From an uncultured Candidatus Saccharibacteria bacterium (GTDB taxonomy: Bacteria > Patescibacteriota > Minisyncoccia > UBA6257 > 2-01-FULL-56-20), in contig CAZAFA010000003.1 of NCBI GenBank assembly GCA_964484655.1, forward strand, positions 28,147 to 92,146: a stretch of 64,000 bases of DNA. The letters run 5' to 3'. Below, piece after piece: positions 25,698 to 62,205 of this stretch. A program made the position numbers and the translations under genes. The first letter of the stretch is position 1. Each line of letters starts with the position of its first letter. The notes below the pieces were generated by a model. It did no database searches. It had not been told where the DNA came from and was given only the letters and a program-made list of their open reading frames with translations.

Positions 25698-25769
25698 GCT
25701 CCTGTGGTGAAACGGATATCACAACGGTCTTCGGAACCGTCGTTGGGGGTTCGAATCCCTCCGGGAGCA
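25698..25769 (+). tRNA. trnR: tRNA-Arg (anticodon UCG)
   Basis: GCTCCTG...CGGGAGC acceptor, D-stem GTGA/TCAC, anticodon stem ACGGT/ACCGT with loop CUUCGGA, T-loop GGGGGTTCGAATCCCTC. No encoded CCA. Confidence 0.7.
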
Positions 25770-25865
25770 CACTTGACCGACGCATTTAAAATGGCGAAAA
25801 TGGGACTTAGGCCATCCGGCCATCTCCCTGAAAGACCAATACTGAAGATAAGGAGGGCTTCGCCT

Positions 25866-26549
25866 ATGAAGCACAATCAGCCGCCACGGCGTTACGAATT
25901 CGCCGGCGGCACCGTCTCCGGCATCACGAGAACGGACATCTACGTTCTCATGGATGACGGCACCGTCGTCCGCTCGCTCCCGATACAAGGGAAGCCGCCA
26001 TTCCGGCTTGCTGAAGGGATGCGCGTAACCTGCTCGTGGTATTGCCGCAGGAACGACGGGAGGATCATCCTCGATCCGACCGCCATCGAACCGTCCGACT
26101 ACTGGAGCCGCGCCCAGAAGCGCGTCACCAGGTTTCCCGAGCACGCATACACGCTCGGAAAGATCTGCGAGCCGTTCTTCGCCGAAGCGCTCGAGAAGCA
26201 CGGCGTCCGCGCCCACCAGGCGTCCATCTACGAGGACGAGTGCCTCCACGTGGATGTCTGGGTATTCCTCCGGATAGACGGCGTGTGGGACTGGTTCCCG
26301 CTCGACCTGACGCTCCGGAAGGTGCACGGGCCAGGATGCTCCGACAAGCTCGAGCGCGGCAAGCGCTACGGGGTCATCCCGCTGCAGATCACGTCTGAAA
26401 TCATTGACAGCGGAGCGACCATCGTTCCCTGGACCATCAAGAACGTCCTAGGCACCCTGCGGGGACCGCTCAAGGACATCGAACTCGTCTCCAGGCGCGC
26501 GGCCCTCATGCTCGAGGATTCCGTGCAGCCTGATCGCGTAACCATCTGA
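25866..26549 (+). CDS. Hypothetical protein (227 aa) in a lower-GC islet flanked by tRNA genes
   Basis: ORF 25665..26549 trimmed to the ATG at 25866, preceded by AAGGAGGG. No recognisable domain. Several Cys, His, Asp and Glu clusters. Confidence 0.5.
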   Translation: MKHNQPPRRYEFAGGTVSGITRTDIYVLMDDGTVVRSLPIQGKPPFRLAEGMRVTCSWYCRRNDGRIILDPTAIEPSDYWSRAQKRVTRFPEHAYTLGKICEPFFAEALEKHGVRAHQASIYEDECLHVDVWVFLRIDGVWDWFPLDLTLRKVHGPGCSDKLERGKRYGVIPLQITSEIIDSGATIVPWTIKNVLGTLRGPLKDIELVSRRAALMLEDSVQPDRVTI

Positions 26550-26601
26550 CCTAAGGCGGCCTCGGCCGCCTTAGCCCTTTGTAGGGGTATACTTATCCTC
26601 G

Positions 26602-26898
26602 ATGCATCACGGTTCCCACCACCTCGCGCGACGGCTGCGCGAATCGCCGAGCCTGTTCGACCGCTTCATGCTCGGAGTCAGCATCGCGGCGGCCTTCATG
26701 ACCCTGCCCCAGATCCTGGCAATCTGGCGCGACGGAGGGTCAGGCGTCTCGCTGGCATCATGGCTCGCGTACGCCCTCCACTCCTCACTGTGGCTCGTCT
26801 ACGGCATCAAGCATCGCGAGCGGACGCTCATCCTCGCGAACACGGTCTGGACCGCCATGAACCTCGTGGTCGTCGGCAGCGTCCTCGCGCTCCGTTGA
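26602..26898 (+). CDS. SemiSWEET-like PQ-loop sugar transporter (3-TM, about 77-98 aa). The true start is possibly ATG at 26668.
   Basis: MLGVSIAAAFMTLPQILAIW...SLASWLAYALHSSLWLVYGI...TLILANTVWTAMNLVVVGSVLAL matches the PQ motif and the W...Y pattern of the SemiSWEET triple-helix bundle. Confidence 0.55.
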   Translation: MHHGSHHLARRLRESPSLFDRFMLGVSIAAAFMTLPQILAIWRDGGSGVSLASWLAYALHSSLWLVYGIKHRERTLILANTVWTAMNLVVVGSVLALR

Positions 26899-26944
26899 CG
26901 GAGTTGCGCGCTTCCCGTCTGGAGGCATACAATCCCCCACGTCA

Positions 26945-27017
26945 GCCTCTATAGCTCAGTTGGTAGAGCAGCTCCCTCTTAAGGAGACGGTCCTAGGTTC
27001 GAGCCCTAGTGGAGGCA
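26945..27017 (+). tRNA. trnK: tRNA-Lys (anticodon CUU)
   Basis: GCCTCTA...TGGAGGC acceptor, D-arm GCTCAGTTGGTAGAGC, anticodon loop CUCUUAA, T-arm CTAGGTTCGAGCCCTAG. No encoded CCA. Confidence 0.75.
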
Positions 27018-40347: not shown

Positions 40348-40425
40348 TGGTAGCCCCAACGGGATTCGAACCCGTGTTTTCGCCGTGAAAGGGCGACGTC
40401 CTGGACCGGGCTAGACGATAGGGCC
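40348..40425 (-). tRNA. trnE: tRNA-Glu (anticodon UUC), 3'-CCA encoded
   Basis: GGCCCTATCGTCTAGCCCGGTCCAGGACGTCGCCCTTTCACGGCGAAAACACGGGTTCGAATCCCGTTGGGGCTACCA closely resembles canonical bacterial tRNA-Glu. Confidence 0.75.
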
Positions 40426-45661: not shown

Positions 45662-45735
45662 CGGGCTGTAGTATACCGGTAGTACGCATGCATGGGGTGC
45701 ATGTAGACCGGGTTCAATTCCCGGCAGCCCGACCA
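45662..45735 (+). tRNA. trnP: tRNA-Pro (anticodon GGG), 3'-CCA encoded
   Basis: CGGGCTG...CAGCCCG acceptor (C1-G72), anticodon stem CATGC/GCATG with loop AUGGGGU (G37), T-arm CCGGGTTCAATTCCCGG, ACCA end. Confidence 0.7.
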
Positions 45736-60998: not shown

Positions 60999-61574
60999 TT
61001 ACGCTTCCGCGCCCAGGATCTCCCGCGCGAGACCGGCGTAGAACGGATTGCCCGTTCGCGCGACGATCTGCGCGCACCGCTCGCGGACGGCCGCGCCCCG
61101 GTCGTAGCGCCTGCCCAGGAGGAGGCAGAACGCCTCGTCGGCGTATTCCGGCAGCCCGCTCAGGGACAGGATGGTCTCCGTGCCCAGGAGCGGCAGCACG
61201 ACCGCGCCCCCGTAGCGATCCTTCTCGGGATCGCGCGTCTCCCAGGAAGCGACGTAGGAGCGGTCCAGCCCCGACTCGAGGCGGAGCGCCTTCTCGCCGA
61301 CCAGCTCGAGGTACTTCATCCGCTTCTCGTAGTTCGGCCCCTCGCCGCCGAGGAACTTCACGAACATGAGCTCCCGGTCCATGCCGAACATCGCCGGCAT
61401 GACCTGCAGGACCGCGCAGGAGCGGTTGAGCCAGCCTGGCTCATCGTCGCCGAACATGCTTCCGCCGAGGCGGAGCACCTTCGGAAATAGTTCGAGCGCC
61501 ATCTCGATCAGCGCCTTCTCGTCGAAGATACCCGCTGGCTGCGGGATCCCCGTCATGCACATACCCATAGTCAC
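60999..61574 (-). CDS. Hypothetical protein (191 aa)
   Basis: ORF with a GAGAGGTGA RBS. No family recognised. Confidence 0.45.
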   Translation of the reverse strand: MTMGMCMTGIPQPAGIFDEKALIEMALELFPKVLRLGGSMFGDDEPGWLNRSCAVLQVMPAMFGMDRELMFVKFLGGEGPNYEKRMKYLELVGEKALRLESGLDRSYVASWETRDPEKDRYGGAVVLPLLGTETILSLSGLPEYADEAFCLLLGRRYDRGAAVRERCAQIVARTGNPFYAGLAREILGAEA

Positions 61575-61691
61575 CTCTCATTTTCAGATATCAACGGACG
61601 GATCCGTCTGCACGAGTCATACCGCGTATCCACGCGTGCGGCAAACGGAAACGCCCGCGATGCGGGCGTTTCCTTCGAGGTTCTCGGGATG

Positions 61692-62069
61692 CTAGTAGCG
61701 TCCGCCGCCGCCGAAGCCGCGCGAGGCGCGCGCCTTGGCGTGACAGTCGCGGCAGGTGACCGGACGATCCCCGCTCGGCATGAACGGGAGCTCGGTGATC
61801 TCCTTGCCGCACTCGCCGCAGGTCCAGTTGCCCTGGACCATCTGGCGCGGGCCCCGGTCTCCGCCGCCAAAGCTGTCGCGCGCCGGCCGGTTCTGCATGT
61901 GGCAGTCGCGGCAGAGCACGTTCTCAGCATCGCGCGGGGAGAACGGGAGCTCGGTGATCTCCTTGCCGCAGTTCTTGCAGGTCCAGTTGCCCTGGACCAT
62001 CTGGCGCGGGCCGCCGAAGCCGCCACCGCCGCCGCGGTTTCCGCCGAAACCTCCTCCGTTGTTGTACAT
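61692..62069 (-). CDS. Tandem zinc-ribbon protein with glycine-rich (RGG-like) termini
   Basis: Two copies of RQMVQGNWTCxxCGKEITELPF(S/M)P...V(L/T)CRDCH(M/A), flanked by GGGFGGNRGGGGGFGG and GFGGGGRY. Confidence 0.6.
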   Translation of the reverse strand: MYNNGGGFGGNRGGGGGFGGPRQMVQGNWTCKNCGKEITELPFSPRDAENVLCRDCHMQNRPARDSFGGGDRGPRQMVQGNWTCGECGKEITELPFMPSGDRPVTCRDCHAKARASRGFGGGGRY

Positions 62070-62205
62070 GGAGTGTTCTGACTTTCTCTTTTCTGACGAC
62101 CTTGATGATTTTCCGTTTCAGGTCGCCTTCAGGCGCGCTTCGCGCCTACCACGTACTTGAACCGTGCCATAAGCCTAGCAGGCCCGCCGGCCTTGGCAAT
62201 GACTA

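Follow-up and report, generated by a model that had tools for sequence, protein, structure and literature searches.

We report on the gene of a small tandem zinc-finger protein in a stretch of 64,000 nucleotides (nt), hereafter the window, from an uncultured Candidatus Saccharibacteria bacterium (assembly GCA_964484655.1, contig CAZAFA010000003.1, positions 28,147 to 92,146 of the forward strand). The open reading frame (ORF) at 61692..62069 of the minus strand is confirmed as a genuine gene, and its product of 125 amino acids (aa) is placed by profile searches in the catalogued, functionally uncharacterised family PF23477/TIGR04272. The protein is built of two duplicated four-cysteine modules, each predicted to fold as a treble clef, which are joined and flanked by glycine-rich segments predicted to be disordered. 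We propose, with a probability of about 45%, that it would act as a multivalent, low-specificity nucleic-acid binder favouring RNA over DNA, and that the conserved 5′ leader of its gene is a candidate site of feedback.

Gene and coding frame

The coding sequence runs from an ATG to a TAG (61692..62069, minus strand; stop codon at 61692-61694), and the 125-aa product is MYNNGGGFGGNRGGGGGFGGPRQMVQGNWTCKNCGKEITELPFSPRDAENVLCRDCHMQNRPARDSFGGGDRGPRQMVQGNWTCGECGKEITELPFMPSGDRPVTCRDCHAKARASRGFGGGGRY, with 21.6% Gly, eight Cys, an isoelectric point (pI) of 8.9 and a net charge of +5. The GC content at codon positions 1, 2 and 3 is 0.63, 0.57 and 0.90 in this frame and 0.72, 0.48 and 0.96 in the neighbouring Obg gene, while the overlapping plus-strand ORF 61689..62081 has its GC peak at codon position 1 and is for this reason taken as a shadow of the minus frame. 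A database search found 229 homologues of the protein, the NCBI protein set includes an identical entry (P0001), and relatives of 72-81% identity begin alike, with MY... or MSY.... From the pattern of GC at the third codon position (GC3) and from the homologues, the minus-strand frame is the true coding frame, and the earlier note on this DNA, made from the sequence alone, was right to drop the antisense ORF. The view that no real gene is present, and that a chance frame in GC-rich DNA was seen or a plus-strand ORF (61689..62081 or 61756..62160) is expressed, draws on the long ORFs contained in all frames of the 66% GC window. It is refuted by the GC3 pattern which singles out the minus-strand frame, by a Pfam match of its product at E = 1.2e-21, far outside chance, by hundreds of homologues which keep the Cys, the start and the stop of the protein, and by the detection with mass spectrometry of Methanosarcina mazei proteins annotated with the same domain (PMC12704099), and we regard its chance of being right as negligible.

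Family membership and comparison with known zinc fingers

The protein is matched in two stretches by each of two profiles, Pfam PF23477 (zf_Tbcl_2, "probable treble clef zinc finger") at 76.5 bits, where the cutoff is 27, and NCBIfam TIGR04272 (CxxC-x17-CxxC domain-containing protein) at 74.4 bits, where it is 36. The family which the earlier note did not recognise is thus a catalogued one, found by both searches far above the cutoffs; its function is uncharacterised, and the match to a well-characterised family of known function, named in that note as grounds against its reading, did not appear. Every testable mark of membership is present, that is the hidden Markov model scores, the four-Cys pattern with [LV]PF-x-P and the predicted treble-clef topology; both modules have the Cys pattern CxxC-x18-CxxC and LPF-x-P is invariant. 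Like the described family members, the protein is small and stand-alone and has the LPF/VPF-x-P core within the Cys4 pattern. It differs in being a tandem form with Gly-rich tails, and the Patescibacteria branch to which it belongs has a spacing of x18 (316 modules) or x20 (69 modules) and not x17, together with its own signature M-x-QGNW-x-C...ITELPF; judged from these sequences, the branch is set apart by the spacing and the QGNW...ITELPF signature.

Eight small proteins of M. mazei carry the domain and were detected by liquid chromatography-mass spectrometry, and two of them annotated with it, A00184 and A01980, bind zinc by inductively coupled plasma mass spectrometry; the authors merely speculate on a role in transcription (PMC12704099). 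These proteins were compared with ours through the shared domain annotation. Searching of the literature on the domain gave nothing beyond PMC12704099, and nothing useful was obtained by accession, by a ribosome link in the candidate phyla radiation (CPR) or by small zinc proteins of Saccharibacteria.

No related solved structure was found in the PDB by phmmer, by a module profile or by Foldseek. The phmmer search gave a marginal eL43-like match alone (E = 0.016), the best Foldseek match had E = 0.99 and nothing was significant, and the module profile scored by adding up partial matches to TGEKPYxCxxCG linkers in C2H2 arrays (PRDM9), matches that were rejected as spurious. Several known classes of zinc finger were also considered and set aside. 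In a classical zinc ribbon of the TFIIS, TFIIB or FmdB type the second CxxC lies on a beta-hairpin, whereas here it is predicted at the N-terminus of a helix, and Zn_ribbon_8 (27.8 bits against 34.4) and FmdB (TIGR02605, 23.1 bits against 31.3) remained below cutoff. The LIM domain has two contiguous fingers, C2HC and C4/C3H/C3D, and was rejected since its 23.6-bit match spans profile positions 28-57 of 58, one finger of the two; the likeness to LIM and FmdB-type ribbons is a weak local profile match to one CxxC...CxxC half. The CCHC knuckle of retroviral nucleocapsid or cold-shock-domain proteins has the form C-x2-C-x4-H-x4-C, in place of which the modules have C-x2-C-x18-C-x2-C, with His after the second pair in 173 of 382 modules. 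GATA-type fingers are treble clefs of CX2CX17-18CX2C with a basic tail, and they resemble the modules in ligand spacing, in treble-clef class and in the basic segment which follows the second CxxC. Their signature residues are absent from the 125-aa protein by reading of the sequence, the host is a bacterium, and the Pfam scan listed no GATA-family match, a sub-threshold KDM6_GATAL score of 19.2 bits (cutoff 27) being all that appeared, so that this class was also rejected.

Two further comparisons are analogies of format. Zinc fingers are combined with RGG/RG boxes in eukaryotic RNA binders of the FUS/EWS/TAF15 type, and CCHC knuckles with glycine-rich sequence in plant cold-shock-domain proteins; these proteins and ours have small zinc fingers amid disordered Gly/Arg/aromatic sequence, which is analogy and not homology. 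Their fingers are of the RanBP2 type or CCHC knuckles and ours are treble-clef Cys4, and the 125-aa protein has one RGG and neither an RNA recognition motif nor a cold-shock domain. The C(P)XCG micro-proteins of Haloferax volcanii (HVO_0758, HVO_2753) are likewise small stand-alone prokaryotic Cys4 zinc proteins, mostly uncharacterised, of another sequence family without the LPF-x-P core; the sole link to them is a weak partial match of 17.6 bits to 8q5b.

Modules, tails and predicted fold

Module 1 starts at R22 and module 2 at R75, an offset of exactly 53 codons (159 nt), and over 45 aligned residues they are identical at 30 of 45 amino acids and 101 of 135 nucleotides; the 36-aa modules proper are 67% identical. 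An independent repeat search returned the same duplication as a direct repeat of 97 nt with 85% identity (61772-61868 against 61931-62027, spacing 159), in agreement with the earlier note, which had claimed an internal duplication visible also in the DNA.

The fold was predicted by AlphaFold2 with 30 homologues, and the topology given here is a predicted one. The protein opens with a Gly/Asn/Phe/Arg-rich tail (aa 1-21, MYNNGGGFGGNRGGGGGFGGP, 62007..62069, minus strand), predicted as disordered with a predicted local distance difference test score (pLDDT) below 50 at residues 4-7 and 9-18, whose composition is kept and whose length varies across relatives. Module 1 (aa 22-57, RQMVQGNWTC-KN-CGKEITELPFSPRDAENVLC-RD-CH, 61899..62006, minus strand) has the putative zinc ligands C31, C34, C53 and C56, with strands at 25-30 and 37-41, a helix at 54-59 and a mean pLDDT of 86-92 in the 10-residue blocks of residues 21-60; its four Cys, E40, L41, P42, F43 and P45 are invariant across the 30 homologues. 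A flexible linker follows (aa 58-74, MQNRPARDSFGGGDRGP, 61848..61898, minus strand), which contains the Gly-rich DSFGGGDRG and has pLDDT below 50 at residues 66-71. Module 2 (aa 75-110, RQMVQGNWTC-GE-CGKEITELPFMPSGDRPVTC-RD-CH, 61740..61847, minus strand) has the putative zinc ligands C84, C87, C106 and C109, strands at 78-83 and 90-94 and a helix at 107-116, and C84, C87, L94, P95, F96, P98, C106 and C109 are invariant in it. The protein closes with a basic Gly-rich tail (aa 111-125, AKARASRGFGGGGRY, 61695..61739, minus strand; pLDDT below 50 at 120-124), the end of which, ...FGGG(N)RY, is retained in P0002-P0007. A C-terminus of Arg-Tyr or Arg-Phe was also observed in 50 of 237 family members, the 125-aa protein (…GGGGRY, aa 124-125) included, and this recurrent ending may be a conserved docking motif.

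The first CxxC of each module is placed between two strands, at the tip of a beta-hairpin, and the second at the N-terminus of a helix, which gives a predicted four-Cys treble clef; conservation across the 30 homologues covers the four Cys, LPF-x-P, W and M. The mean pLDDT is 83-92 in the 10-residue blocks covering the modules, and the two are independently oriented, since the pLDDT of the linker is below 50 and the predicted template modelling score is 0.34. Behind the second CxxC stands His in 173 of 382 modules and W, F, Y, N, M or L in the others, and because this His is not conserved the site is read as Cys4, with His as no ligand. The description of each module as a CxxC...CxxCH zinc knuckle in a zinc-ribbon protein, given in the earlier note, accordingly stands for a putative zinc site in each module, and falls for the CxxCH motif, for the knuckle (the Cys pairs are 18 residues apart) and for the ribbon, in view of the helix at the second CxxC. 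The RGG/FG-like tails of that note were borne out as Gly-rich segments (aa 5-20, the linker and aa 118-125) which AlphaFold2 leaves disordered, at the residues listed above. They do not agree with the definition of a di- or tri-RGG protein by two or three closely spaced RGG repeats, for which R12-G13-G14 and G122-G123-R124 alone, one RGG and one GGR about 110 residues apart, are available; the relatives L035, L018 and L066 do have true RGG arrays.

Relatives and family-wide architecture

The best genome match is a Candidatus Paceibacterota metagenome-assembled genome (MAG) with 80% identity, further matches are MAGs of Patescibacteria, Saccharibacteria, Staskawiczbacteria and Woesebacteria, and the homologues with names in databases are likewise Patescibacteria. 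A HMMER scan of 1.84 billion cluster representatives (clusters at 50% identity) returned 1,947 proteins at E <= 1e-3 and 269 at E <= 1e-10. In a metagenomic sample of 120 loci, returned by a degenerate DNA pattern of the module's core, all 120 encode a protein of 35-136 aa in which the module occurs once or twice. The 147 newly retrieved representatives have between one and five modules and are up to 423 aa long. No enzyme fusion was present in the 120 metagenomic copies or the 147 representatives, and Pfam showed no second domain in ten long family forms. Viral contigs gave no match to the strict module pattern, and a phage origin was rejected on this ground.

Outside the modules the 147 representatives consist of R at 13%, K at 12%, G at 10% and S at 9%, and 49 of them have at least three RG/RGG motifs. 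Several relatives (e.g. P0150, P0164 and P0246) have long Lys/Ala-rich, histone-H1-like tails, archaeal forms from Thermoplasmatota (e.g. P0125, P0131) have RGG/RD-rich linkers, and the family medians are a pI of 8.7 and a net charge of +4. Between species of the window's clade the two modules are orthologous, each to its counterpart, which makes the duplication older than this clade. Family-wide there is no consistent orthology of the two, and modules at least 80% identical within one protein occur in 12 proteins, from which we infer repeated duplication or gene conversion; such repeated tandem duplication fits a selection for multivalency.

Two groups of long forms were observed besides. P0150, P0158, P0164, P0168, P0171, P0186, P0222 and P0246 have an RGG-rich N-terminus, 2-3 modules and a conserved short helix QFExLNxKLDKIxxLL, and in most of these proteins the C-terminus is a Lys/Ala-rich tail like that of bacterial histone-H1-like proteins. 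P0210 (aa ~160-245) and P0213 (aa ~330-423) have in common a C-terminal Cys region, FYAxIREKLFEILGGKxCSxCGF...VLCxNC, without Pfam match.

Promoter-like site, leader and terminator-like hairpin

The gene is a stand-alone transcription unit and probably a regulated one. Upstream of it, alignment with relatives revealed a promoter-like site on the minus strand (62172..62199) formed by TTGCCA (62194-62199), a 16-nt spacer with TGn, and TAGGCT (62172-62177), which aligns with TGCTATACT, TGCTATAGT, GGCTATAAT and TGGTACAAT of the relatives. By hand count the copy in the window agrees with the consensus at 8 of 12 positions, and the consensus scan passed it over; transcription would start at this site. 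The site, of the extended -10 type, is found together with the leader in relatives at L001 5870-6000, L003 5929-6063, L008 3842-3976, L136 2857-3000, L139 2872-3000, L140 2862-3000 and L143 1744-1886.

Between this site and the ATG lies a non-coding 5′ leader (62070..62168, minus strand) of roughly 100 nt, which is conserved in alignments of 8-9 leaders from seven distinct close relatives and the window. It has an invariant block 1, ACGGTTCAAGTACGT (62151-62165; ACGGTTCAAGyACGT across relatives), a hairpin of variable sequence (62131-62147), an invariant block 2, GGCGACCTGAA (62117-62127), and a GGTCGTC element (62095-62101; GGTCGTY in relatives) which is able to pair with GGCGACC, all on the minus strand; RNAalifold gave a consensus stem. 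The minimum free energy of the window's leader is -34.9 kcal/mol (z = -3.2), and support by covariation is weak, most of the paired positions being invariant. The leader was rejected as an N-terminal extension of the protein and is non-coding, because the distance from block 2 to the ATG, 57-64 nt, takes all three phases and in-frame stops lie between. A public gene call, P0123 (146 aa, L003 6001-6441), and a 154-aa ORF of L008 (3890-4354) extend into the leader, with GGCGACCTGAATTCGGAA read as GDLNSE. The minimum-energy fold of the window joins block 1 (GUACGUGG) to the region of the start codon (CCAUGUAC) by a pairing which is not clearly retained in relatives that start with MSYGDF. The idea of a Shine-Dalgarno-less leader was abandoned, as a Shine-Dalgarno-like motif precedes 17 of 113 genes against 13% of control ORFs and 14% of random 17-mers, with crude start calls.

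Rfam has no family at the gene or the leader. A covariance-model search of 97 more distant loci and the window recovered the leader in the window copy alone, and motif searches elsewhere in the window gave single copies only; by these searches the leader is confined to the window's clade.

On the downstream side, 19 nt past the stop codon, stands a terminator-like hairpin with a perfect 12-bp stem, GGAAACGCCCGC/GCGGGCGTTTCC, and a 3-nt loop (61647..61673, minus strand). An equivalent hairpin of 12-16 bp, about 20 nt past the stop codon, is present in six of six relatives checked (L001, L003, L008, L136, L139 and L140), five of them perfect and one 93% complementary, with the structure conserved and the sequence different in each. 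The T tract of the window's hairpin is short (GTTTGCC), which is why it was missed by the consensus scan; taken with those of the relatives, the structure resembles a terminator whose T tract is short or missing.

Gene neighbourhood

In close relatives (72-81% identity) the gene order is a membrane ORF, the zinc-finger gene, an ORF of 191-198 aa, in some cases tRNA_bind, and Obg, and in distant homologues the neighbourhoods are unrelated. In the window a 191-aa ORF without Pfam match (60999-61574, minus strand) lies directly downstream of the zinc-finger gene, and most close relatives have at the equivalent place, mostly just ahead of Obg, an ORF of 191-198 aa with no Pfam annotation. Across the family, neighbours are equally often on the opposite strand, and the gene is preceded by a long 5′ gap, with a median of 235 nt compared with 62 nt for the remaining ORFs of these contigs.

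A conserved operon partner was sought by clustering of 541 neighbour ORFs from about 120 loci and was rejected, the largest family being shared by 11 loci, mostly of one subclade. The top clusters are functionally incoherent (Germane, generic ATP-binding cassette (ABC) ATPase, ECF sigma, TGT, DUF498 and GARS), and a CTP synthase cluster was named solely through comparison with locus L006. A link to zinc uptake was likewise dismissed, since the ZnuC-like neighbour is part of a mixed ABC-ATPase cluster (FtsE, large ABC proteins) of nine loci.

The window has a GC content of 65.8%, unusually high for a Patescibacteria-like genome; the family's roughly 120 metagenomic loci have a maximum of 0.65 and a median of 0.39. 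Seven tRNA genes were also noted in the window, at 595-1095, 25698-27017, 40351-40425 and 45662-45732.

Proposed function and alternatives

In the mechanism that we propose, each module of about 36 aa would fold around one structural zinc ion, with a beta-hairpin that bears the first CxxC on its tip and a short basic helix (CRDCHxKxRxxR) that has the second at its N-terminus, and flexible Gly/Arg/aromatic segments would join and flank the modules. The two fingers and the disordered basic tails would jointly make low-specificity, avidity-driven contacts with nucleic acids, with RNA preferred over DNA, and the protein would be an RNA-binding or chaperone-type factor. The gene would be transcribed as its own unit, from the promoter-like site through the structured leader of about 100 nt to the hairpin terminator, and the leader may be the site of feedback regulation. 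A multivalent nucleic-acid binder is suggested by the absence of enzyme fusions in the samples examined, by the tandem multiplication of the module, by the R/K/G-rich disordered surroundings with their RGG arrays and by the H1-like tails; the RNA preference and the autoregulation are inferred as well. The suggestion of the earlier note, a nucleic-acid chaperone or a ribosome-associated factor, fits the family-wide composition, and nothing was found in specific support of ribosome association.

A number of observations weigh against this proposal. The 125-aa protein itself has a single RGG and a single GGR, its modules are by reading of the sequence close to neutral in charge, and no known RNA- or DNA-binding finger gave a significant structural match (best Foldseek E = 0.99). 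Basic low-complexity tails are common also in proteins which bind other partners, and the high genomic GC content of 65.8% by itself favours Gly and Arg codons. The genomic context offers no functional clue, the Obg linkage being confined to the close clade. Acidic proteins with pI below 7 make up 23 of 237 family members, and a two-module subgroup (L036, L048, L057, L121 and L131) has an acidic Pro-rich linker of 40-60 aa and a pI of 4.6-5.0, which is hard to reconcile with generic nucleic-acid binding.

The acidic-linker members speak for a possible role as an adaptor or regulator, with fingers docking on a protein partner such as RNA polymerase, a ribosomal or assembly factor, a chaperone or a protease, and with the tails, perhaps the C-terminal Arg-Tyr/Phe seen in 50 of 237 members, serving as docking peptides. 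The M. mazei authors suggest a role in transcription, since one paralogue is annotated as an RNA polymerase subunit and TFIIB-type ribbons have a like Cys spacing (PMC12704099); the surface-type motif ITELPFxP is conserved beyond the strict needs of a 36-aa fold, and in the window's clade Obg is two genes away. Weak similarities exist to RpoP/Rpb12, eL43/L37ae, LIM fingers and the ClpX zinc-binding domain, but those to RNA polymerase and ribosomal zinc fingers are all sub-threshold, the Obg linkage is lost in distant relatives, and no conserved neighbour or fusion names a partner, the best-shared neighbour family reaching 11 of about 120 loci. The R/K/G-rich composition of the family is more typical of nucleic-acid binders, and we hold the adaptor to be possible and rather doubtful.

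Sequence-specific binding of DNA, as a transcription factor or nucleoid-associated protein whose two fingers read DNA in a GATA-like manner, is unlikely. The Cys spacing, the treble-clef class and the basic segment agree with GATA fingers as generally known, KDM6 GATA-like gave its weak match of 19.2 bits, and the Lys/Ala-rich tails of some relatives occur also in bacterial nucleoid proteins; against these stand the lack of a listed GATA-family match and of the GATA signature residues (by sequence reading), the lack of a conserved target-gene neighbourhood in about 120 loci, and a copy number of 1-5 modules with repeated duplication, which suits avidity better than a fixed recognition code. 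We give quite low odds also to a zinc buffer or store, or a thiol redox sensor, in which the eight Cys would hold two zinc ions to be freed on oxidation or zinc shortage. Two M. mazei proteins bind zinc and dehydro-cysteine (oxidised) forms were seen by top-down proteomics (PMC12704099), and eight Cys within 125 aa and a ZnuC-like ABC ATPase near a few loci (L041, L047, L060) point in the same direction. Two zinc ions per 125 aa are however a poor storage capacity, the ABC-ATPase cluster is heterogeneous and limited to nine loci, and the strongly conserved non-ligand residues (W, ITELPF, M) indicate a specific fold and interaction.

Significance

Many conserved proteins in the small genomes of Patescibacteria, or CPR bacteria, are still uncharacterised. 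With 1,947 clusters at 50% identity the PF23477 family is a large one, present in both CPR bacteria and Archaea, and it is functionally unassigned. The gene of the window is an ordinary member of this family, and its value is that of a clean tandem example with a well-defined promoter-like site, leader and terminator. By analogy, and as a rather improbable extension of the proposal, the PF23477 proteins of Patescibacteria and Archaea might be a prokaryotic counterpart of the eukaryotic RNA binders which combine zinc fingers with RGG boxes, that is abundant multivalent RNA chaperones, possibly condensate-forming. In the window's clade the protein would then regulate its own production by binding the structured 5′ leader, which would be a new cis-regulatory RNA absent from Rfam. 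If the proteins are indeed general RNA- or DNA-binding factors, they would fill a gap in the RNA folding or nucleoid organisation of these reduced organisms.

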